From: Acidobacteriota bacterium
Lineage (GTDB): Bacteria; Acidobacteriota; Blastocatellia; Pyrinomonadales; Pyrinomonadaceae
DNA length: 64,000 nucleotides
Direction: 5' to 3'
Assembly: GCA_023436495.1 (NCBI GenBank)
Contig: JAEZIT010000120.1
Location: 14,107 to 78,106 of the forward strand
Made by a program: the position numbers and the translations under genes. Under the pieces are notes generated by a model that saw nothing but the letters and a program-made list of their open reading frames with translations, was not told the origin of the DNA and did not search any database. Below are positions 41,655 to 52,762 of this stretch, piece after piece (positions within the stretch are counted from its first letter, which is position 1; each line of letters begins with the position of its first letter).

Positions 41655-41812
41655 GAATTGCCCCTAGCTTTAGCTAGGGGTTCTCGAACAGTAAACGCCC
41701 CGGCTTTAGCCGAACCTCTTTTTAAATTCCATTCCTTATGGCTTCAGCCAAATTTGGGCTAAAGCCCGGTCAATATCCATGCTCAAAGCCCTAGCTAAAG
41801 CTAGGGGCAATT
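41655..41812. repeat. REPIN-like inverted doublet of family-A palindromic repeats
   Basis: Left arm GAATTGCCCCTAGCTTTAGCTAGGGG...CCGGCTTTAGCCG. Right arm GGGCTAAAGCCC...CCCTAGCTAAAGCTAGGGGCAATT. The arms are reverse complements in overall order. Confidence 0.8.
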
Positions 41813-41861
41813 TATTTCCGCGCCTAACTATTCCCCGTGTTTTGCGGTAAAATAGACTTTT

Positions 41862-42947
41862 ATGTCCGAAAAGACGCACATTACGGGCCTATCGCCGGCG
41901 GCGCTCGCCGAACTTGTCGAATCCATCGGCGAGCCGAAATACCGCGCCGTCCAGATCTTCAAAGGCGTGCACGGCCGCCGCCTGCGCTCGTTCGACGACA
42001 TGACCGACCTGCCGAAGGCCTTTCGTGCAAAACTTGCCGAGATCGCTGACGTCTCGACGCTGACCGTCGACGCGCGTTACGTTTCCGAAGACGGCACGCG
42101 GCGCTATCTGATGACCACCGCCGACGGCCGCCCGGTCGAAACCGTCTTTATCCCGACCGAAGGCCGCGACACCATCTGTTTCTCGTCGCAATCCGGCTGC
42201 CCGCTCAAATGCGATTTCTGCCTGACGGCAAAACTTGGCCTGCTGCGCAACCTGACGGCGGCAGAGATCGTCGAACAGATCATCATCGTCCTGAATGACG
42301 TTTACGGCGTTGGCGGCGAAACTCCGCACGGGACCAATCTTGTCGCGATGGGCGCGGGCGAACCGTTCCTGAATTTTGAGGATCTCATCGCCGCGCTCGA
42401 TATTATGTCCAGCGAAGACGGCCTGTTCATCGTGCCCGGCCGCGTCACCGTTTCGACCGCCGGCATCGTGCCGAAGATATATGAGTTTGCACAGCTCGAA
42501 CGCCGGCCGAACCTCGCCATTTCGCTTTCGGCGCCGAACGACGAGCTCCGCGACAAACTTATGCCGATCAACCGCCGCTGGAACATCGCGGAATTGATGG
42601 CTGCGGCAAAGGCGTTCCAAAAAACGCTCGGCCGCGGCGAACGCTTTACGTTCGAATATGTCCTGCTCGGCGGCGTCAACGATTCCGACCGCCATGCCGA
42701 AGACCTGGCGGCGCTCGTCAAGCGCCACGGCCTGTCGCGGGTCAAAATAAACCTGATCCCGCATAATCCGGCCGAACAGCTCGATTATCATCCGTCGGCC
42801 CCGGAACAGGTCGGCCGCTTCAAACAGATCCTGGAATCGAACGGCATTTCGGCGTACGTCCGCCGTCCGCGCGGCCGCGATATTTACGCTGCGTGCGGCC
42901 AACTGGCTGCAAAACAGGAACCGAATCTGGTACAGATCGCCGCCTGA
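41862..42947 (+). CDS. rlmN: 23S rRNA/tRNA (adenine-C2)-methyltransferase, radical SAM
   Basis: SSQSGCPLKCDFCLT radical-SAM motif, N-terminal KYRAVQIFKGVH, and C-terminal CGQL. Confidence 0.93.
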   Translation: MSEKTHITGLSPAALAELVESIGEPKYRAVQIFKGVHGRRLRSFDDMTDLPKAFRAKLAEIADVSTLTVDARYVSEDGTRRYLMTTADGRPVETVFIPTEGRDTICFSSQSGCPLKCDFCLTAKLGLLRNLTAAEIVEQIIIVLNDVYGVGGETPHGTNLVAMGAGEPFLNFEDLIAALDIMSSEDGLFIVPGRVTVSTAGIVPKIYEFAQLERRPNLAISLSAPNDELRDKLMPINRRWNIAELMAAAKAFQKTLGRGERFTFEYVLLGGVNDSDRHAEDLAALVKRHGLSRVKINLIPHNPAEQLDYHPSAPEQVGRFKQILESNGISAYVRRPRGRDIYAACGQLAAKQEPNLVQIAA

Positions 42948-42960
42948 CAATTTTTCGATT

Positions 42961-43470
42961 ATGGAACTTATGATCCCGGGTCTGATACTCGTCGCACTGA
43001 TGGTGTATCTTTCGACCCGCATAAAACGCACCGCGGCCGAAGCCTTCGCCCGCGAAGAGATAGACACAGGCGAATTCTCGCTCGTTAAGCCGGAAGGCTT
43101 CATCAATCCCGTCAAGGACGCGAGCGAATATGCATTCGAAGCCTATTCCAAGGACTACGGCCGCGATGCCGCGGGCAATCTGCCTCAGGCGTCGATCACC
43201 GTAAAACGCCACGGCAGTGACCTCGAATCCGTTTACGAATCCGCACGCGGTTCGCTGACCGACCCCGAAACGATCGGCTCCGACGGCGACGAATTCGTCG
43301 TCCGCGGCCGCGGCACCGAAGGCAGCACCGCCGCCGAGGTCTATTACAAACTAGTACGCGCCGGCAGCGCCGTTTACGAATTTCGCACCTGCGCCCTCAC
43401 CGACCACGCAGCCGATTTCCGCGAACGCCTCCGCCAAACCGCCGACAGCTTCGCCGTCCGCCCGCGGTAA
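42961..43470 (+). CDS. Hypothetical single-pass membrane protein (169 aa)
   Basis: N-terminal TM helix. Lies 13 nt downstream of rlmN. No motif recognised. Confidence 0.5.
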   Translation: MELMIPGLILVALMVYLSTRIKRTAAEAFAREEIDTGEFSLVKPEGFINPVKDASEYAFEAYSKDYGRDAAGNLPQASITVKRHGSDLESVYESARGSLTDPETIGSDGDEFVVRGRGTEGSTAAEVYYKLVRAGSAVYEFRTCALTDHAADFRERLRQTADSFAVRPR

Positions 43471-43535
43471 CTGCTCCGCGACATTTTTACAACAGAGTGG
43501 AGCAGTCGAAGAGTAACGGAAGTAAAACAGGCGGA

Positions 43536-43668
43536 GAATTGCCCCTAGCTTTCCTTTTTTGAATTGCCCCTAGCTTTCCTCCGTTGAATTGCCCCTAGCT
43601 TTCCTCTGTTGAATTGCCCCTAGCTTTAGCTAGGGGTCCTCGAACAATAAAAGCCCCGGCTTTAGCCG
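43536..43668 (+). repeat. Three 25-bp tandem truncated family-A half-repeats, then a full family-A hairpin and a secondary hairpin
   Basis: GAATTGCCCCTAGCTTTCCT(TTTTT/CCGTT/CTGTT) x3, then GAATTGCCCCTAGCTTTAGCTAGGGG and CCGGCTTTAGCCG. Confidence 0.85.
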
Positions 43669-43711
43669 AACTACTTCTTTAAAACGATCATCCTTAAAGC
43701 TTTAGCTGAAT

Positions 43712-44143
43712 TTAGCCGAATTTTACAAACCCCGCCCGATTAAGGAAATCCTCAAATTCTTTTTCGAATGTTCGGCCCCGATGATGTTCCTCCTGCCGGG
43801 CAATATAGTTTCGGACGCCTTCTAAATTGGATTCACTTACGGACACGGCAAAGTACTCTTCCTGCCACCCGAACTTGAGCTTCGTAAGTTTATTTTTATT
43901 GATCCAAAATGAGGATTCACCTTTTAATAATCGAACGACGTCCTCAAGCGTCTGGTTGGTCCCCAGCGAGATCAAACAATGGATGTGATCGACATAGCCA
44001 CCGATAAAATCCAGAAAGATTCCTTTCTGCAATGCGTTTTCGCGAATGTGATCGAACACCTTCGACCGAATTTCCGGCTTTAAATAAGGATGTCGGTTCT
44101 TTGTCGACCAGACGATGTGTATCCAGACCTTTACAAATGGCAT
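43712..44143 (-). CDS. IS200/IS605-type Y1 (HUH) transposase; REP-associated tyrosine transposase (RAYT) candidate
   Basis: 143 aa. HUH motif in YVDHIHCLIS and catalytic Tyr region VRNYIARQEEHH. N-terminal VWSTKNR pattern. Confidence 0.85.
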   Translation of the reverse strand: MPFVKVWIHIVWSTKNRHPYLKPEIRSKVFDHIRENALQKGIFLDFIGGYVDHIHCLISLGTNQTLEDVVRLLKGESSFWINKNKLTKLKFGWQEEYFAVSVSESNLEGVRNYIARQEEHHRGRTFEKEFEDFLNRAGFVKFG

Positions 44144-44217
44144 ATGAGAGAATTTGGATGATTTGTTTTTCAGATTGTTCCATATGGCGAAATTTGGCGC
44201 AAGACCGAGGTAGCTTT

Positions 44218-44274
44218 GGGCTAAAGCCCGACCATTTGCTGGACTTATCCACTAGCTAAAGCTAGTGGCAATTC
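44218..44274 (-). repeat. Family-A REP (variant) with secondary hairpin, right flank of RAYT
   Basis: GGGCTAAAGCCC followed by CCACTAGCTAAAGCTAGTGGCAATTC. Confidence 0.8.
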
Positions 44275-44382
44275 AAATGAAGAAACTCTTTTATGAAAAC
44301 GCCGCTATTTTCAGCCGGTAACGCTTCGTTCTGCCGGTCAACCGTTCGCCCTGGGGCGGCATCTGACCTACAATATTGAAAT

Positions 44383-44838
44383 ATGACGAAATTCCTACTG
44401 TTGATCGCCATAATATTCGCCGCCGGGATCGGCCTTGAATCATCCGCCCAAACCGTTACCGGATCTGTCGGCACCGCTACACGCGGAAAAGCCGTCAGCG
44501 GCACCGTCGTTATAAATATCCCGGACGGCCTGCACGTAAATTCCAACCGGCCAAATAGCGAATACGCCATCCCGACGACCGTCCGCCTTACGGCACCCGG
44601 CGCTCGTGTCGGCGCGGTCCGCTATCCGCGCGGCCGCAACCGCAAATTCCAATTTTCCGAAAGCACGATCAACGTTTACGAAGGCCGAGTCGCCATTCCG
44701 TTCACCGTCACCGTTCCCGCGAACTACCGCGGCAACACCGTCCGCGTCCGCGCCGCCGTCCGCTACCAGGCCTGCACCGACGAGGTCTGCTATCCCCCAA
44801 AAACCGCGGACATAACCATGACCGCCCGCGTGCGTTAA
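44383..44838 (+). CDS. Secreted DsbD N-terminal (alpha) domain-like protein
   Basis: Signal peptide, an Ig-like beta pattern, and the characteristic C-terminal YQACTDEVCYPP Cys pair. Confidence 0.75.
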   Translation: MTKFLLLIAIIFAAGIGLESSAQTVTGSVGTATRGKAVSGTVVINIPDGLHVNSNRPNSEYAIPTTVRLTAPGARVGAVRYPRGRNRKFQFSESTINVYEGRVAIPFTVTVPANYRGNTVRVRAAVRYQACTDEVCYPPKTADITMTARVR

Positions 44839-44864
44839 AACGCAGGAAGGACGCCCGCACATAC

Positions 44865-45129
44865 GACGGACCGCTGGTCCGTCTCTTAATGTAAGGCGGA
44901 CCGCTGGTCCGCCAACCCCGCCCATCGGCCCGCAAATTGTCCCAACAAACCTCTGCGCAAACATCGCGGACCACCGGTCCGCGTTACATCTCCGCCGCCA
45001 AATGTACAGCGGACCGCTGGTCCGTCGCGCCCCGCAGCCCATCGTTCCGTAAAATCCCCCGACAAGCCTCTGCGCAAACATCGCGGACCACCGGTCCGCG
45101 TTACGTTCCCAAGCCCGCGTTACATCTCC
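44865..45129. repeat. Family-B GC-rich palindromes (GCGGACC-NNN-GGTCCGC), five copies within a ~115-bp tandem duplication
   Basis: Palindromes at 44865-83, 44895-913, 44966-82, 45010-25 and 45083-99. The flanking segment CCTCTGCGCAAACATCGCGGACCACCGGTCCGCGTTAC is duplicated. Confidence 0.8.
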
Positions 45130-45130
45130 C

Positions 45131-45452
45131 CAGCCTCGTAGAGGCGTACCGTTTGTAGAACCTGCCAGCCGATCAACGCCCCAAGCTCCGTAGGAGCGAC
45201 CCGTTTGTAGAACCGCACATCAGCCAAGCGCGCCAAGCTCCGTTAGGAGCGACCCGTTTGTAGAACCGCGCACCAAAAGTTCATCCCTAGCTCCGTAGGA
45301 GCGTCCCGTTTGTAGAACGACATGCCCAATTAATGACCCAAGCTCCGTAGGAGCGACCCGTTCCCGCACCGCCCAAACCAACGGGCCGCTCCTACGGAGC
45401 TACGAAAACTTTTCCCACCCATTACTACAAACGGAACGCTCCTCCGGAGCTC
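45131..45452. repeat. Family-C repeats (AGCTCCGTAGGAGCGACCCGTTTGTAGAAC): five direct copies at 52-53-bp period plus two inverted copies
   Basis: Direct copies start near 45131, 45182, 45234, 45288 and 45339. Inverted copies are at 45381-45401 and 45422-45452. Confidence 0.8.
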
Positions 45453-45580
45453 AAAACAAAACTCCTCTTCCTTTGCGTCCTCCGCGTCTCTGCATGAGAT
45501 CTTCTGCCGAAGCCCGCACGCAGTAAGGGCGAAACATCCAACGCCATACCTACGCTAGCCGCCCGACTTTCCTCCCATAA

Positions 45581-45753
45581 ATTGCCACGGGCCTCAGCCC
45601 GTGGTCACCGCCCAACAACCAATCCGGCTTCAGCCAAATTGGGCTAAAGCCCAGTAAATGATGATGCTTCCATCCCCGAGCTAAAGCTCGGGGCAACTTA
45701 TAAAAAGAGGTCAATGATGATGCTCCATCCCCGAGCTAAAGCTCAGGGCAACT
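45581..45753. repeat. Family-A-related hairpins (variants), including a tandem duplicated unit
   Basis: ATTGCCACGGGCCTCAGCCCGTGG, GGCTTCAGCC and GGGCTAAAGCCC. Also two copies of ATGATGATGCT(T)CCATCCCCGAGCTAAAGCTC(G/A)GGGCAACT. Confidence 0.75.
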
Positions 45754-45807
45754 CATAAAACCTCGAGACAAAAGCGATCCATTTTCTCCCCCACTCCCCC
45801 AAAACTC

Positions 45808-47793
45808 TCACTCAATTATCACCGTCCTCGCGTTCGCAAGCTCCTCCGGCGTTTTCAGCCTGAAACTCTCCGGTACGAACGCGATCGCCACTAGTTCGGC
45901 GGGAATGCCCGGGCGGGCGGGTTTATAGGTCAGGACGGTGAGCTGCGTTCCAAACCCCACTCCGCAATCGATCGCGAACGAATTGCTGCCTTCGGTCAAC
46001 ACGGACATCCGCAGGCCCGAAAAATCCCTGCTCGCCAATTCGGTCTTTTGCCCGGCGATCGTCACCGCGTAGCGGATCTTTCCGTCGCGGCACGTCACGC
46101 GATCGACATACCCCACGGCCTGCCGTTCGCCCGTGCCCGGCCTCTCCAATATGCGGTTCAGATTCGTATTCACCCGGTCGAGCTCCAAACGGGCGAGGTC
46201 GGCGTCCGTCACGGCGGAGCGTTTCAAAAATATCGGCGGAGGCCCGAAATAGATCATATCGCCGTGCATCGCCTCGCGCGCCGCCGCGTATTGGATGACG
46301 GCAAGGACGATCGCTTGAGCATCGGCACGCGTCTCGCGCGAAGCCGCATCCGACGCCGCAACGCGCTCGGCGATCGCCTTTGCTTCCGAATATTTTTCCT
46401 GCATCACCAGCGCCTTTGCCAGCAGGACCTCGTACGCCGGTTTTCCCGGATCGATCGACAGGGCAGTGCGAATTTGCTCCGCGGCCTCGTCCGGGTTCTC
46501 GCCGTTGGCGATGTTTATGAACGCCAGCAGCGCATACGGATCCGCCTGGCGGTTGTCAGCAGCGATCGCCCGCCGCAGGGCCTGCCGCATCGCCGCTGAA
46601 TCCGCGGTAGAGTATTTTGCGACCCTGCCGAACGCGTCGGCGGATTCGCGGCTGACCGCGTACGCATAATTAAAATTCGCCGCGGCCGTGTTGCTCTTCG
46701 CAACGGCCTTTTGGAGGAACGGCTTTGCTTCGGCGAACCGTTCCTGCCTGACCAACGCGTCGCCGAGCGCGGCATTTGCCTCCGGCGACGACGGCTCGAG
46801 CTTCAACGCCTCGCGCAGCATCTCCTCGCCCTCAAAAACACGTCCCATCCGCGACAGAAGATCCCCGAGGTACGCCTTCGCCGTCGCCTCCGTGATCCGT
46901 TTCGAAGCGGCCTGTACACTTTTGGCGGCGCTGCCGGACGGCCTTGGTGCAGAAGGTGGCACCGATGCGAAATTCGCAACATAGATGGACAGCTCTCGTT
47001 CGAATGCGGCCGCGTCGAGAGAGTAGACCCGAGCAAGCGCGGTATCGATGCCGGCAGGCGCCGCCTTCAGAAATTCGGCCATCTTGCCCGCACCGCCGCG
47101 CTGCATCAGAAAATGCACGGCCGCCCAACTCTGCGCATAGAACAGCCCGCGCGAAGCGCTCCGCTCGCGATGGAGTTCCTTGTTGGAAACCGCGAACAAC
47201 TCACCCAGCGGAATAAGCTTTTCCTTTCGCAGCACGGACGCGTGGCCGGCCGGCTCGCGCCCGAAAACCGCCGCGCCGTCCTCGACCCGAAATGTCTCGA
47301 AGTATTCCGCGAGGCCTTCGCCCAGCCACGCGGGAACTTTGCCCGGGCCGAAATTCGAATTCAGAACGTAGTGCGTGTATTCGTGAAAGACCGTGTTGAA
47401 CGGGTCCGTACGGCCGGCCGCCGCGAAGGTTATATAGTTCACATCGCCCGCGGCAAGGAAATATCCGACGGCGCTCTCATCAGGAAGGCCGTCCGCCGTC
47501 ACCGGCTTGAACGGCGTGTAGGCGGCCTGGTCTTTGAAAACAATGACGTTGGTTTCGGTGCGGCTCTCCGATCTTAGGTCTGGGAAAACCTGCCGCAGCG
47601 CCGCGCGAAATTTCTCCAGCCCGCCGCCGGCGTTGCGGATGTCCGCTTCGGACGCGTTGCCGATCAGATGGAAATTATCGGTCCGAACCTCGGTCCATAC
47701 ATCACCGCCCGCCCGCGCGCCTATGCAGAGCAGCGCGATCGCCGCCATCAATAACAGGCTGCGAAATTTAATGAGAACCGCCGGGTGATGCAT
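45808..47793 (-). CDS. Secreted MA-clan HExxH metallopeptidase-like protein with TPR repeats
   Basis: Signal peptide, HEYTHY zinc-binding-type motif (VFHEYTHYVL), and a central TPR-like helical region. Confidence 0.75.
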   Translation of the reverse strand: MHHPAVLIKFRSLLLMAAIALLCIGARAGGDVWTEVRTDNFHLIGNASEADIRNAGGGLEKFRAALRQVFPDLRSESRTETNVIVFKDQAAYTPFKPVTADGLPDESAVGYFLAAGDVNYITFAAAGRTDPFNTVFHEYTHYVLNSNFGPGKVPAWLGEGLAEYFETFRVEDGAAVFGREPAGHASVLRKEKLIPLGELFAVSNKELHRERSASRGLFYAQSWAAVHFLMQRGGAGKMAEFLKAAPAGIDTALARVYSLDAAAFERELSIYVANFASVPPSAPRPSGSAAKSVQAASKRITEATAKAYLGDLLSRMGRVFEGEEMLREALKLEPSSPEANAALGDALVRQERFAEAKPFLQKAVAKSNTAAANFNYAYAVSRESADAFGRVAKYSTADSAAMRQALRRAIAADNRQADPYALLAFINIANGENPDEAAEQIRTALSIDPGKPAYEVLLAKALVMQEKYSEAKAIAERVAASDAASRETRADAQAIVLAVIQYAAAREAMHGDMIYFGPPPIFLKRSAVTDADLARLELDRVNTNLNRILERPGTGERQAVGYVDRVTCRDGKIRYAVTIAGQKTELASRDFSGLRMSVLTEGSNSFAIDCGVGFGTQLTVLTYKPARPGIPAELVAIAFVPESFRLKTPEELANARTVIIE

Positions 47794-47829
47794 TAACGGT
47801 TTGATTATCCGGCAGGAAAAAATGTTGCA

Positions 47830-48705
47830 TCAGGCGCGGCCGATCACGGACATAAGCCTGCCCGTTTTGCCGTAGAGCTTTTTTTCGACGCGATAGGAAA
47901 AGAAGAGGTCGGTCCGCTCCATCGTGCAGAGCGGGGCCGTGTAGATATTTTCCATCCGCACGCCCGCGTCGATCAGCTGATCGCGATTGGCAAGATGGAG
48001 GTCGACGAGCGCGTGGCCGTCGCGGGTCGGCGTAAAATATTTTCCACTTGTGGAAAAATTCTCGGCAAAGGCATCGATGACGTCGCCGCCGACCTCGTAA
48101 TTTCTTCCGCACGCCGCCGGGCCGATCGCCGCGATAGCGTCCGATGCCCGCGCGCCGAATTTCTCGTTCATCTTCTCCATCGCCTTCGTCACGATCGATG
48201 CCGCCGTTCCCCTCCATCCCGCATGGACAGCCGCGAATGCGCCCGTGGCCGGATCGCCGATCAGGACCGGGACGCAATCGGCGGTTTTGACGCCGACCAA
48301 AATGCCTTTTCGGTCAGAAACCAGCGCATCGGCGCGGTCTTCGGTCCGATTTTCGTCGTCGGTCGTCAGGACTGTTTTGATAATGTCACTATGGACCTGC
48401 CACGCTGTCACTAACCGCGGAAATTGCGCGAACAATGTGCCCATAAAGCGCCGTCGATTTTCTTCGATATTTTCGGCCGGATCTTCGTCATATCCGGCGA
48501 GGTTCAGGTCGTTTTCCGGGAACGGCGAAACCCCGCCCAGCCGCGTCGAAAAGCCGTTCGCAAAACCCGCGTCCTCCAAGGCTTTGCAGATCAGGACTTT
48601 AACCCCGCCCGCTTCTCGCCAAAAGAACCCGTTATCGGTTAGAATCTGTTCGTCAGGTGCAGTATTTATCGGGGTTTTTATGATCGTTTCCATTGGCGTC
48701 GACAT
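47830..48705 (-). CDS. pgeF: Peptidoglycan editing factor / YfiH-family (laccase-domain) protein
   Basis: GFSTRLGGVS, TADCVPVLI and AVHAGWRGT motifs. The start (48705 or 48693) overlaps the divergent acpS start. Confidence 0.85.
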   Translation of the reverse strand: MSTPMETIIKTPINTAPDEQILTDNGFFWREAGGVKVLICKALEDAGFANGFSTRLGGVSPFPENDLNLAGYDEDPAENIEENRRRFMGTLFAQFPRLVTAWQVHSDIIKTVLTTDDENRTEDRADALVSDRKGILVGVKTADCVPVLIGDPATGAFAAVHAGWRGTAASIVTKAMEKMNEKFGARASDAIAAIGPAACGRNYEVGGDVIDAFAENFSTSGKYFTPTRDGHALVDLHLANRDQLIDAGVRMENIYTAPLCTMERTDLFFSYRVEKKLYGKTGRLMSVIGRA

Positions 48706-49060
48706 AATCGAAGTCTATCGTATCCGCGAGACCATTGAAAGGACCCCGCGGTTCGTGGACCGCGTATTTACGGCCTCGGAACGCAATTACTGCGACGCAA
48801 AAGGCGCCGCCGCGGCCCAGAGCTACGCCGGGCGATTTGCCGCTAAAGAGGCGTTTCTAAAGGCTTTACGCACCGGCTGGAGCGGCCAAATAACCTGGCA
48901 CGATATCGAGATCGTATCGGACGAAAATCGCGTCCCGTCACTCAAAATATACGGCGAAGCCCTTAGGATACTTGAACTTACGGGTGCCGACCAAGTTCAC
49001 CTCTCGATATCGCACACGACCGAACACGCGGTGGCACAGGTCATTCTCGAACGAACCTAA
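48680..49060 (+). CDS. acpS: Holo-[acyl-carrier-protein] synthase
   Basis: MIVSIGVDIIEVYRI start, FAAKEAFLKAL, and ISHTTEHAVAQVILE. The internal ATG at 48680 of the longer track ORF was used. Confidence 0.9.
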   Translation: MIVSIGVDIIEVYRIRETIERTPRFVDRVFTASERNYCDAKGAAAAQSYAGRFAAKEAFLKALRTGWSGQITWHDIEIVSDENRVPSLKIYGEALRILELTGADQVHLSISHTTEHAVAQVILERT

Positions 49061-49086
49061 CCCCTTGCATCTACTCCATTTACGTG

Positions 49087-50979
49087 CTATTTCCGTTCGT
49101 CGAGCGAGAAATAAGCGATCGAGGGGTCATGATCCGAAAACCGCTCGACCCGCGTTGCGTCGTTCCTGTAAACCTCAGGAAAATCAGCGTTTAGCCTCGC
49201 GTAACCAAACCCGTTCAAATGCCGTGTGAGATTTGCCGTGACCAAAATATGGTCCAACACCTGCGAATTCCCATCGAATATGTAAGAGTAACGTTCTAAA
49301 GGCTTTATCAGATCAACAAGGTTGATCATGTCCGGATCGACCATGTCCGCCGAAGGATTCTCAACTGCATTTCCGCCCGCCGGTTTTCCGGCGATCGTGC
49401 CCATAAGATCAGTTATTCCATCATTAAACTGATACATATTGAAATCGCCGACCAGAATTATCCGCTCGGCCGGATCGGCCTTTTGCCGCCCTTGGACCCA
49501 CTTCGCGAGATATTCGGCCTGCAACCGCTTCTTCATGCGAACATTGGCTTTCTGCTTTGGGTCGTTATATCCGCCGAACGATTTCAAATGATTCGCAACT
49601 ACTGTAAATTCAAAGGGTTGGCCGGATTTCCCGTCCTCGACCGCAGCCCGGAGCATCAAAGGCGGCCGGTCGTTCAGAAAATTCTGCTCCTTAGTATCTG
49701 GGTTCAAGTATTTCTCCTCTTTCCCGAACTGCTTTATTTCCAGCACTTTAACTCCCGAGGTTTTCACCAGAAAACCGTTATCGATCCCCCGCCCGTCATT
49801 GTCGTCAATGAGAAAGGCCTTGTATTTTGGATCCGGCCCACCGGCGGCGACGGCATCGCTGTTGACCGCATCCGCCAGCCGCGTAAGTGCTTCTAAATTC
49901 TCGGCTTCCGCGATTCCGATCACGTCGGCGAAGTTTAGATGTTCGCGAATCGCCATTGACACCTTTTTCGTCCGACGCGCAAACCCAGCGGTGTCAACAA
50001 TTACCTCATTGATCGCCGGATCGTCACGGTCGTCGAAAAAATTCTCAATGTTCATCGCCGCGACAGTAAACTGCCGGGCCGACGGAACGGGAAGCGGTGT
50101 GCGTTTAACCCCTTTTGATACAGTAAGTTTCAGTGCAGGATCAGAAAATATCGTATACGTCCGATAGGCGTAATGAAGCACGCCCGTGATCGCGGAAAGG
50201 CTCGAATATGCTTCAATATCAATAGGTTGCGAGCCGAGTTGAGCCGAACTCTCAACCCGGATCCGCTCGGGATTACCGTCAAAAATTGCAAGTTCCGGCA
50301 ATTTCGATCGCAGGGAATCCCGCTCCTTATCCGTAAGGAACACAGTTTCAAAGACTTCCAGCCCCGGCTCGCGGTATGTCCGTCCGACGCCATCGGGCAC
50401 TCCGTAAAATATCCCATTCGATACTGAGTTTCCGGACTTGTCGTCAAACCGCCCATCCGTAGGTGACACGACGGTCATATTTGTCACCGTAACTCTCATG
50501 CCTTCAAGCTTTTCCAGTTGATCTATGCGGTTGGTACGCATATCCGCAGCGGTGATCTCCACCGGCTTCGGCAGCGGCATACCCTTCGTCAAAACCCGGA
50601 TAGTGTCCCTGTCCTGGAAGAACGAAAGTTGGGTCAAGGAGAGTGTGTTTGGTTCGCTCCGGGGCCGGAATTCATTGACCGTCCCGGTGATCAAGATCAA
50701 ATTTCCCACAGCCGCCTCGGCCGGCGGCTCGTTTCGGGAATAGACAAACAGACCTTCCGACGAATTGGCGTCGGAATCCGTTTTATCGTCCGGCGATTGA
50801 ATAAAAAAGCCGGTGCGGGTTCTGGCTGTCACGATGCCTCGGACGCCGGTTTGGCGGCCATCCAGCGGCGAAAAGTTCCCGGTTCCCTGGATCGCCGAGA
50901 TAGAAGTTTCTGTTTGTGCAGGTATGTCCGCGGCAAAGCCAGCCGCGACAACAAATAGGGCGAGAATCAGTTTTTTCAT
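49087..50979 (-). CDS. Secreted ExeM/NucH-type extracellular nuclease (endonuclease/exonuclease/phosphatase fold)
   Basis: Signal peptide from the ATG at 50979. N-terminal ISAIQGTG...VRGIVTA...GFFIQ OB-like pattern. C-terminal EEP motifs (GDFN, SDHDP). Confidence 0.82.
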   Translation of the reverse strand: MKKLILALFVVAAGFAADIPAQTETSISAIQGTGNFSPLDGRQTGVRGIVTARTRTGFFIQSPDDKTDSDANSSEGLFVYSRNEPPAEAAVGNLILITGTVNEFRPRSEPNTLSLTQLSFFQDRDTIRVLTKGMPLPKPVEITAADMRTNRIDQLEKLEGMRVTVTNMTVVSPTDGRFDDKSGNSVSNGIFYGVPDGVGRTYREPGLEVFETVFLTDKERDSLRSKLPELAIFDGNPERIRVESSAQLGSQPIDIEAYSSLSAITGVLHYAYRTYTIFSDPALKLTVSKGVKRTPLPVPSARQFTVAAMNIENFFDDRDDPAINEVIVDTAGFARRTKKVSMAIREHLNFADVIGIAEAENLEALTRLADAVNSDAVAAGGPDPKYKAFLIDDNDGRGIDNGFLVKTSGVKVLEIKQFGKEEKYLNPDTKEQNFLNDRPPLMLRAAVEDGKSGQPFEFTVVANHLKSFGGYNDPKQKANVRMKKRLQAEYLAKWVQGRQKADPAERIILVGDFNMYQFNDGITDLMGTIAGKPAGGNAVENPSADMVDPDMINLVDLIKPLERYSYIFDGNSQVLDHILVTANLTRHLNGFGYARLNADFPEVYRNDATRVERFSDHDPSIAYFSLDERK

Positions 50980-51049
50980 CGTTGAAGACAAGAGCGGCCC
51001 GGGAGCGAGAGATCTCCGGGCCGCCGGTAATAAACCCAATGGTAGCAAC

Positions 51050-52762
51050 CTATTGACGGTCGCGGCGACGCTCCATCAACTCCTGAGAGTTTTTCGGAAC
51101 GTTCGAAAAGAAGTTATATCCCGTCAGGTTTTCGACAGCGTCGACCGTCACGCGGAAATTACGCCAAGGAGCGTTAATATCGACAGGCGGCTGATTGGGA
51201 ACGATAATGCCAAACGCCCGCGTACCTTTGTTAACTCTCTGCAGGTCATTATTGCCGTTGGGCAGGACAAGTACTACCTTCCAGGTCACCTGCGGCACGA
51301 CGATACGGCCTTGGGCAATCGTCCCTGCATTCCCGTGCGGCCCTGTGAAAATATAGATCTCGTTGCCCTGGCTTGCGAGCGTGCGGCAATAGGTTTCAAA
51401 TTCCTCCCATGGCCCCTGATTATTTGCCGAAAGCTGCGGAACAAAATTCGTCATCAGGAACGTTGCCGAATTGTTGGGGATCGAATTCGTCCGGTCTCCC
51501 GAAGGGCACATATGCCCGCGGTCGTAACCGGACCCGGAATAATCCTCGCTCAAGACCTGATACCAGCCCATCGGCAGGGCCGGATCGGGACGATAATCGT
51601 CCTGTCGGCCAGAAGAGCCGATCCAGCTGCTGTCGAGCCGCCAGGCGACCCAATTAGGAGTGGCCTTGCTTCGGTTATACGACAGCGTGTACTGCGGCTT
51701 CTGCATAAGGTAATTATTCTCGTTGGCAATGTCTCCGGTCGCGTTGCTGGGATTTCCCAAGATGAGCGGGTCCTCGTTCGGCAGCGGCGCATTGATCGTT
51801 AAAGTGACATTAACGGAGGCAGTGCGGCCTTCTGCGTCGACTGCCGCGCCCGCGATCGGAGCCATTCCTCCGGGCGTGCTCTGGGCAACTGTCGCTAGAT
51901 AACTGAAAACATTGTCATTAGGCGTTATATCGCCGTTGGTGCCATCGTCGAACAGCTGCTGGTTCGCGTCGCCGCCGATGGACTGCAGATTCGCCGCGAC
52001 GGTGATCGAAGTACTTGGCGGTGTGGTCGCAGGAATGACGGTAACTTGCAGTAAAGTACTGCCGCCTGGCGAGACGACCGTGGGGTTAGCATTCATCGCC
52101 GCGAAGAGGGTCGTGCCTCCTCCGCTGCATGAAAAAACGGCCGTTACGGAGTTTCTCGGCGCTGAGGGTATCGTCGGAGAAAAGTCGTTCGCGTTGTTAT
52201 CGTTGTCCTGACAACCGCTATTTTGCCGCGACTGACTGTTGTTCAGCGCAGGCGCCGCAGTTGGCGACGCTTCGACGAAAATGTTTGTGGCCGTCCCCCA
52301 CCCGACGGAATCGATTATTGCACCCGTATTTGGAGCTCCCTGCCGGATCGCCAACCCGCCGCCTGCGGCGCCAAGCGCGCAGCTGCAGGTATTGCTGTTA
52401 TAAGAAGCATCCGGGGCCACGGTGCCGTCGTACGCTGTGTTTGCGATAAGGTAATAGCCGCCAGATGGAATTATCGTGGATGAGGGCCATTCCATCATTT
52501 TCACATCATTGGTCCCGTTTGCCGACCGATACACTACGGTATACCCGCTAAGATCGATCAAAGACGGTCCCGAATTATGTATCTCGATAAACTCGTCGTT
52601 CGCCGTACCGCCAGCTGTCTGGAACTGGCTGATCATCAAATGCGGCGATACGACTGCTGTTTCGGCTTTTGCGTCGGTTAAGAAAAGATATGGCCCGGCG
52701 AAGGCGACCAGGCCGAAAACAATTGTGCAGACGAATGATATCTTTAGTAGGCTAAGTCTCAT
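51050..52762 (-). CDS. Secreted lamin-tail-domain protein fused to a DNA/RNA non-specific endonuclease domain
   Basis: Signal peptide, LTD pattern (LMISQFQTAGGTANDEFIEIHN...LSGYTVVY), and C-terminal SGYDRGHMCPSGDR with TNFVPQ. Confidence 0.88.
   Translation of the reverse strand: MRLSLLKISFVCTIVFGLVAFAGPYLFLTDAKAETAVVSPHLMISQFQTAGGTANDEFIEIHNSGPSLIDLSGYTVVYRSANGTNDVKMMEWPSSTIIPSGGYYLIANTAYDGTVAPDASYNSNTCSCALGAAGGGLAIRQGAPNTGAIIDSVGWGTATNIFVEASPTAAPALNNSQSRQNSGCQDNDNNANDFSPTIPSAPRNSVTAVFSCSGGGTTLFAAMNANPTVVSPGGSTLLQVTVIPATTPPSTSITVAANLQSIGGDANQQLFDDGTNGDITPNDNVFSYLATVAQSTPGGMAPIAGAAVDAEGRTASVNVTLTINAPLPNEDPLILGNPSNATGDIANENNYLMQKPQYTLSYNRSKATPNWVAWRLDSSWIGSSGRQDDYRPDPALPMGWYQVLSEDYSGSGYDRGHMCPSGDRTNSIPNNSATFLMTNFVPQLSANNQGPWEEFETYCRTLASQGNEIYIFTGPHGNAGTIAQGRIVVPQVTWKVVLVLPNGNNDLQRVNKGTRAFGIIVPNQPPVDINAPWRNFRVTVDAVENLTGYNFFSNVPKNSQELMERRRDRQ

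Follow-up and report, generated by a model that had tools for sequence, protein, structure and literature searches.

A repeat-filled intergenic gap in a Pyrinomonadaceae genome is probably one copy of a dispersed, ordered mosaic of REP-type hairpin modules

Two convergent genes enclose a gap filled with repeat modules

The window analysed here is a stretch of 64,000 nucleotides (G000:C83:14107-78106) from a Pyrinomonadaceae assembly of 3.48 Mb, which comprises 141 contigs, is 96% complete and was searched as a whole. The source is an uncultured soil acidobacterium, assigned to this family by the names that homologues of its proteins bear. Within the window, a 969-base gap (44839-45807) separates two convergent genes that encode a DsbD_N-like protein and a Peptidase_MA protein. 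A whole-genome BLAST search identified positions 44862-45801, 940 of the 969 nucleotides, as repeat modules with copies elsewhere in the genome. Repeat islands make up ~1.2% of this genome, and the gap is the sixth largest among them.

We found no Pfam match for the ORFs of the gap (213, 88, 73 and 63 aa) and consider none of them credible, as the initial annotation had claimed. The largest (window 44440-45081, minus strand) is annotated as a gene in the ENA record. It runs antisense to the conserved DsbD_N gene and is a read-through of the repeats. Because ENA calls this 213-aa ORF instead, the true DsbD_N protein is missing from the protein collection. This corrects the public gene calls.

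Sequence reading and repeat finders recovered all four repeat groups that had been described in the gap, each where it had been placed. The earlier module list overlooked module D2, however, and left module F and the C-rich tail unnamed. The 64-kb window contains five family-B cores and five copies of the 21-nt family-C core, all of them inside the gap; shuffled windows are expected to contain 0.09 and 0.01, respectively. The A1 and A3 modules together are a gene-less version of the two flanks of the nearby Y1 transposase gene.

As a single strand, the whole gap folds far more stably than shuffled sequences (z = -11.9). Corresponding values are -5.1 for the first B doublet, -7.7 for the inverted pair of C units and -4.8 for the A hairpins. 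No Rfam family scored above its gathering threshold on the gap (best matches 15-24 bits, against cut-offs of 35-150), and a known RNA family was rejected on this basis.

Table 1. Coordinates of genes and repeat modules; positions without a contig name are those of the window.
Feature	Location	Strand	Description
Family-A hairpins at the Y1 gene	43536-43700 and 44200-44275		Bracket the window Y1 gene
IS200-like Y1 (HUH) transposase gene	43712-44143	-	Motif Y---Q--HH
DsbD_N-like gene	44383-44838	+	Left neighbour; kept in relatives at 53-74% aa identity
Family B, all units	44867-45098		Five CGGACCRCYGGTCCG palindromes; solo unit and two doublets of 113-117 nt
Solo family-B palindrome	44862-44883	+	CGGACCGCTGGTCCG, ATGTA-type foot; left mosaic edge, 23 nt past the DsbD_N stop
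B doublet 1	44888-45000	+	Two inverted B palindromes ~55 nt apart, forming one long hairpin; REPIN-like
B doublet 2	45001-45117	+	Tandem copy of doublet 1, 84% match, 117-nt period; z = -2.9
Five direct family-C units	45132-45375	+	GCTCCGTAGGAGC hairpin with CCCGTTTGTAGAAC tail; period 52-53 nt
Two inverted family-C units	45377-45451	+	First pairs with the last direct unit; 21-22 bp stem
Module D1	~45460-45504	+	TTTGCGTCCTCCGCGTCT.., non-palindromic; the 'dispersed 35-bp element' of the initial annotation
Module D2	45503-45545	+	TGCCGAAGCCCGCACGCAGTAAGGGCGAAACA
A-type hairpins, all	45577-45760		Loop GCTAAAGC
A1	45577-45612	+	Family-A REP; ATAAATTGCC foot and CACGGGC/GCCCGTG hairpin
A2	45619-45652	+	Two small hairpins, CCGGCTTCAGCC and GGGCTAAAGCCC, like those adjoining the Y1 gene
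A3 with 55-nt tandem copy	45669-45760	+	Inverted family-A REPs (CCCCGAGCTAAAGCTCGGGG-CAACTT)
C-rich tail	45780-45801	+	(CACTCCC)n type; last part of the A module at many loci; 6 nt separate its end from the peptidase stop
Peptidase_MA/DUF1570/TPR gene	45808-47793	-	Right neighbour; C-terminus ...RTVIIE*
Intact IS200-like Y1 genes	C83 (window), C2, C21		Motif Y---Q--HH
Classical RAYT	C43:4900-6137		Intact, 182 aa, YIHMNPVRAGL
Truncated RAYT	C59		N-terminally truncated; adjoins a mosaic copy
Degenerate Y1 copy	C107
Right-hand extension	C12:11800-12060
Right-hand extension	C33:5700-5930
Right-hand extension	C53:2930-3180
Right-hand extension	C123:560-800
Right-hand extension	C24:480-600
Right-hand extension	C111:1180-1320

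The modules recur in one order across the genome

We identified 49 copies of A, 37 of B, 52 of C, ~22 of D1, ~51 of D2 and 31 of F at 68 loci in an nhmmer census of the genome. The genome-wide count that the initial annotation had proposed thus yielded six multi-copy module families, together with six Y1_Tnp matches that are described below. As is typical of REP-type repeats, the units are short imperfect palindromes, occur in multiple copies and lie outside genes.

The modules follow the grammar [D2 F D2] [B doublets] [C direct] [two inverted C] D1 D2 (F D2) A1 A2 A3 tail. This grammar is found in one order and relative orientation at seven loci, on contigs C62, C94, C81, C83 (the window), C111, C127 and C19. 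The F/D2/A part occurs at more than 10 loci, and the order 'D2 F D2 A' at at least eight loci besides the seven composites. BLAST matches collinear with the gap include C94 (82% identity over 711 nt) and C62 (79% over 553 nt), with further long matches on C19, C81, C127, C111 and C59. A MAFFT alignment of eight composite loci extends from end to end, non-palindromic spacers included, and exposed modules D2, F (GTCAGAACCACCTCGCGTKAGCGGGTGGGTTCTTC) and the C-rich (CACTCCC)n tail. Repeats and alignable linkers in a fixed order at seven loci constitute a BIME-like architecture. In families B, C and A, units pair up as inverted doublets, and each doublet folds into a single hairpin; D2, F and D1 are oriented singlets in this genome and inverted doublets in relatives.

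Since order and orientation repeat at six other loci and the spacers are homologous, the gap is probably a single instance of an ordered, non-coding mosaic of REP/REPIN (BIME-like) hairpin modules that is dispersed through the genome. A puzzling gap would thereby be accounted for as ordinary selfish DNA.

The initial annotation had raised the idea of unrelated families landing at a special site, which the same order, orientation and homologous spacers at the six other loci do not bear out. If the gap were instead a landing zone, the families would arrive separately, each module would insert at a short target in the end of another, and the stack would be rebuilt at every locus. Whole modules have indeed been gained or lost from copy to copy, C111 having an additional D2 and C81 and C59 an additional F-D2. 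The order F-D2-A also occurs in a second species (G008) in which C sits elsewhere, and the target of IS200/IS605 enzymes is a fixed tetranucleotide, with insertion on its 3' side (PMC3333891). A weaker point in favour of separate arrival is the F doublet that fills the homologous gap in one environmental relative. We nevertheless find this explanation doubtful: there is no unique DNA between the modules, the spacers that join them are non-palindromic and shared across loci, B-C-D1 is found in this order only in this genome, and no conserved target motif was identified.

The family-C units, which are 30 nt long, partly palindromic and separated by spacers of ~22 nt at a regular 52-nt period, also resemble a degenerate CRISPR-like array. 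Spacers common to different loci led us to reject this reading, which we regard as barely credible. In addition, the array is closed by inverted units, C units flank Y1 genes, and no cas gene was found among the neighbours examined.

Copies of the mosaic are recombinant patchworks

In 80-nt sliding segments, the nearest neighbour of the window copy switches every 40-120 nt with a local identity of 94-100%; long-range identity between copies is ~80%. Along the gap, the series of best matches is C127, C81, C94, C19, C59, C81, C111, C94, C59, C79, C136 and C71. Spacer haplotypes group the loci differently from block to block. These shifts in best-match locus and haplotype grouping along the mosaic indicate that the copies are recombinant patchworks. 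Judged from the sequences, the patchwork would fit block duplication combined with exchange between dispersed copies, either by cleavage-and-rejoining or by gene conversion.

The arrangement might also be an artefact of assembling the genome from a metagenome, in which repeats were collapsed or joined into a chimera. Many contigs end within these repeats, and a Logan contig is cut off at 45676, in the A hairpins, a break typical of repeats; the mosaics are break points of this genome's assemblies. An artefact at the window locus is nonetheless highly improbable. Copies that lie ~20% apart are not collapsible in assembly for that reason, and the junctions with both genes are clean. The ENA assembly ERZ27268839, which may share reads with this one, contains a 99.7-kb contig that is 100% identical over window positions 41808-51793 (9,986 nt), including the gap and both flanking genes. 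Rearrangement on re-assembly, which the initial annotation had named as evidence that would count against its reading, is therefore not seen in that contig, with the same proviso about reads.

Module orientation follows GC skew

At every locus to which modules D1, D2 and F give an unambiguous direction, we compared this orientation with GC skew in the surrounding ±20 kb, with repeats masked and the nearest ±2 kb excluded. The form that the mosaic takes on the + strand of the window lies on the negative-GC-skew strand at 37 of 40 loci (Fisher p = 4e-8), and 25 of 28 contigs are fully consistent with this rule. GC skew around the gap in the window is itself negative. On C75, both module orientations are present and flip together with the skew. 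GC skew tracks gene-strand bias (Spearman 0.46, p = 5e-10), which identifies the G-rich strand as leading. The + strand form of the mosaic is thus on the C-rich, lagging strand at the same 37 loci. Orientation has no locus-level link with transcription, as measured by gene-strand bias (p = 0.53). In the second species, G008, the strand rule follows the same trend where the skew is clear and is non-significant.

The C75 contig is 75 kb long, and its skew changes from +0.12 to -0.08 between the two sets of modules (1-110 and 69300-70600). Either the replication origin or the terminus may lie on this contig; dnaA itself is found on C58.

Published work places the action of Y1 enzymes on the lagging-strand template and describes REP cleavage and rejoining by TnpA-REP (PMC3333891, PMC6006769). 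Single-strand handling at the replication fork is established for IS608 and ISDra2 and has been proposed for REPs (PMC3333891, PMC6006769). By analogy, the polarity is the pattern expected if the modules were handled as single strands at the fork, and the orientation bias offers a clean computational indication that REP-type mosaics behave as single strands coupled to replication. Polarity could also arise from selection instead of from the insertion mechanism.

Selection could act on a strand-dependent signal or RNA, such as a replication-oriented or topology site (comparable to gyrase- or IHF-binding BIMEs), a bidirectional transcript end or a small-RNA family. Strict polarity, very strong folding, near-identical copies of A1 and F and an F-D2-A order preserved across species all suit such a function. 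The gap has no match in Rfam and no promoter-like site, though, and its terminator-like sites are no more numerous than in shuffled sequences. Module content varies freely by locus, the long mosaic is absent from 30 relatives, and the arrangements of neighbouring genes are mixed (convergent, tandem and divergent) in a gene-context table that was built from crude longest-ORF calls and is indicative only. On balance we think a selected signal quite unlikely. We also rejected the repeats as a common promoter of a paralogous gene family, as the downstream genes differ in identity and strand.

In the tail of the mosaic, positions 45780-45801 of the minus strand place G runs on the leading strand (GGGGAGTGGGGGAG...). 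The tail is longer at C81:30376-30430 and C136:1-80, and four or more G runs are present at other loci. A G-quadruplex is possible, on sequence grounds, in tails with four or more G runs.

Several Y1 genes adjoin dispersed hairpin families

Four of the six genomic matches to Pfam Y1_Tnp are intact. Five of the matches, three of them intact, lie outside the window, in line with the earlier suggestion of additional RAYT genes elsewhere in the genome. Several families beside one RAYT had been considered unusual in the initial annotation, a view that published work does not support. Pseudomonas fluorescens SBW25 has three REP families and three RAYTs (PMC3116915), and the presence of several REP families with several RAYTs per genome has been stated as a general point (PMC6006769).

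Most of these genes are bracketed by repeats. The window Y1 gene lies between family-A hairpins and the C107 remnant between copies of an A-like variant. The C43 RAYT has arrays of a family of its own, G (GCGGAAAAGCTCTGCTTTTCCG and GCGGCTCTGCCGC), on both sides, the truncated C59 RAYT a G-like hairpin pair and the C21 gene family E. Family G is dispersed, with 19 matches on 7 contigs; family E is local only. Together with family G, the C43 RAYT, at a contig end, is a textbook REPtron.

Family C units are located 3' of the C2 Y1 gene and also flank its 56-57% orthologues in two relatives, G007 and G018. In another relative, G006, A hairpins precede a 59% orthologue of the window Y1 gene, and an inverted doublet of D2 directly follows it. 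This is the only case in which D2 was found next to a Y1 gene; within the 141-contig, 96%-complete assembly, no Y1 gene adjoins D2, B, D1 or F. We found no TnpB in the genome, and a TnpB guide-RNA origin of the repeats was rejected for that reason.

The IS200-like proteins of the window, C2 and C21 are 143-151 aa long, contain DH[IV]H-type HuH, WQ and Y---Q--HH motifs and share ~36% mutual identity. These lengths and motifs agree with TnpA-Y1 subclass 1.2 (PMC6006769). The Y1 genes are single per type and divergent, as opposed to a multi-copy IS, and their own strand has no consistent orientation. Genomic adjacency suggests that IS200-like genes of subclass 1.2 can have dispersed hairpin partners, the pairing of the C2 gene with family C being confirmed in three genomes. 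The genome is an acidobacterial example of several REP families coexisting with several Y1 genes.

The gap is near zero in relatives

The gene order at this locus is conserved: rlmN, orf169 and DsbD_N are followed by the convergent peptidase and Cu-oxidase_4 genes. The initial annotation had asked whether the region is expanded, and a synteny comparison indicates that it is. The 969-base gap in this genome compares with a median of 3 nt (range -19 to 348) in 18 relatives, measured after reading frames were extended to stop codons. The 348-nt gap contains a small zinc-finger-like ORF. On the other side of the DsbD_N gene, the spacing from orf169 is 83-120 nt in relatives versus 913 nt here, where the Y1 gene and hairpins lie between the two genes. 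The Y1 gene is missing from the equivalent position in relatives.

Relatives carry parts of the mosaic. Of the 31 genomes searched, this one alone contained the long B-C-D1-D2-A composite. D2 is the most widespread module and occurs across the genus; in genome G014 it forms a plain inverted doublet. F-D2-A is the sole order kept across species. D1 forms inverted doublets in an environmental relative. The DsbD_N relatives in a metagenome scan reach 74% identity at most, and exact-protein look-ups with the DsbD_N and Y1 proteins matched no other strain.

On an environmental Pyrinomonadaceae-like contig, Ga0209574_10000549, an inverted doublet of family F occupies the homologous gap (L089:8612-8749).

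No relatives of the peptidase were found on genome contigs in the related-locus search. The homologues nearest to it, at 43-49% identity, belong to a short form with 675-721 aa and the ending RTVIIEDDRxFKS.... The peptidase here stops at RTVIIE*, 14-26 residues short of them, and the mosaic probably clipped the corresponding ~14-26 codons, so that it also marks a clipped gene end.

The peptidase stop lies within CTCACTCAA (window 45808-45830), which is similar to the mosaic tail at C127; this similarity suggests that the repeat may supply the stop codon. Most peptidases of genus relatives (loci L009-L011, L017 and L018) are ~800 aa long and have a tandem second C-terminal domain of ~110 aa (...EFVPxxF), of which this genome and the nearest homologues have one copy. 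The ~800-aa length of the genus relatives, in which the 'gap' is coding, had been the original ground for supposing that the mosaic deleted a 130-aa C-terminal domain. We rejected this deletion because the nearest homologues are short forms too, which limits the missing part to ~14-26 residues.

Comparison with known systems and a proposed mechanism

The main features of the mosaic all have precedents. The REPIN/REP-RAYT system of SBW25 (Bertels and Rainey, 2011, PMC3116915) likewise has several REP families per genome, a replicative unit that is an inverted doublet folding as a hairpin, and higher-order ordered clusters; each SBW25 family adjoins its own Y1 gene, as families A, C and G do here. 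Mixed GI-GIII tandem arrays in SBW25 include near-identical copies in opposite orientation on either side of the origin (PMC3116915). The present case differs in that the host belongs to the Acidobacteriota, the repeat sequences are unrelated, a single fixed order spanning ~0.9 kb combines at least six families, three of the partner genes are IS200-like (Y---Q--HH) and not classical RAYTs, and several families lack a partner gene in the assembly.

The BIMEs and REPtrons of Escherichia coli (Ton-Hoang et al., 2012, PMC3333891) share with these mosaics REPs in alternating orientation joined by conserved linkers, and a single Y1 gene bordered by REPs. The single-strand cleavage and rejoining with local amplification that has been proposed for them would fit the patchwork described here (PMC3333891). 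Unlike BIMEs, however, the arrays in this genome contain modules of several unrelated families and have no GTAG foot, no y, z1 or z2 REP types and no named linkers; strand polarity was measured here. The feet are ATAAATTGCC in A, ATGTAAGG in B, TTGCCGAAG in D2 and GTCAGAAC in F. Family C contains GTAG in its hairpin loop and on the 3' side of the hairpin instead of as a 5' foot.

TnpA-Y1 subclass 1.2 is listed as 'REP: no', with Cyanobacteria and Bacteroidetes as its taxa (Table 1 of Quentin et al., 2018, PMC6006769). The window, C2 and C21 proteins match this subclass in length and motifs, and like it they are low-copy and mutually divergent. In contrast to that listing, two of the three genes adjoin a hairpin family dispersed ~50 times, and they do so in an acidobacterium. 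IS200/IS605 elements and their gene-less derivatives offer a further parallel, with subterminal hairpins, a Y1 HUH enzyme and an orientation tied to the lagging-strand template. Here, however, TnpB is lacking and the Y1 genes are single and ~36% identical instead of multi-copy, near-identical tnpA genes. Comparing the loci, we found no common left or right ends and no target site of the IS200/IS605 type. What sets this case apart is its phylum, how many families share one fixed order, the clean polarity and partner genes of a subclass listed as repeat-less.

We propose that the putative Y1 enzymes would move or copy the modules as single-stranded DNA at the replication fork, and that such fork-coupled handling would set module polarity. 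Shared spacers suggest that the mosaic spread through the lineage as blocks. Cleavage-and-rejoining or gene conversion would keep reshuffling and homogenising patches of 50-120 nt. At the window locus, the mosaic would have come to occupy an intergenic space of almost no length, between convergent genes, and removed the final ~20 codons of the peptidase. Effects on the host, for example hairpins that end convergent transcripts, would be a side effect.

In a more speculative version, the whole mosaic of ~0.9-1.5 kb would be a single composite, strand-polar, non-autonomous element (a 'super-REPIN'). It would be moved as a unit by the IS200-like Y1 enzymes of subclass 1.2 through an upstream alternative end, the duplicated F-D2 block, and would capture the REP families between its ends. 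We consider this version unlikely. If true, a Y1 subclass described without repeats or IS properties would drive a modular, replication-coupled mobile system in Acidobacteria.

Some copies of the mosaic contain sequence that the window copy lacks. The copy at C59:16000-17900 has an insertion of ~330 nt between the direct and inverted C units. At least six loci have a right-hand extension (Table 1), in which a D1-like box is accompanied by three to five iterons of the TTTATGA(T/A) type and by GCAAAATTTTCATGCGCGCCGCGCAAAATGTCACTAAC, a conserved box of 38 nt. Across the genome there are 28 matches to the iteron motif, and the genes downstream of the extension vary by locus.
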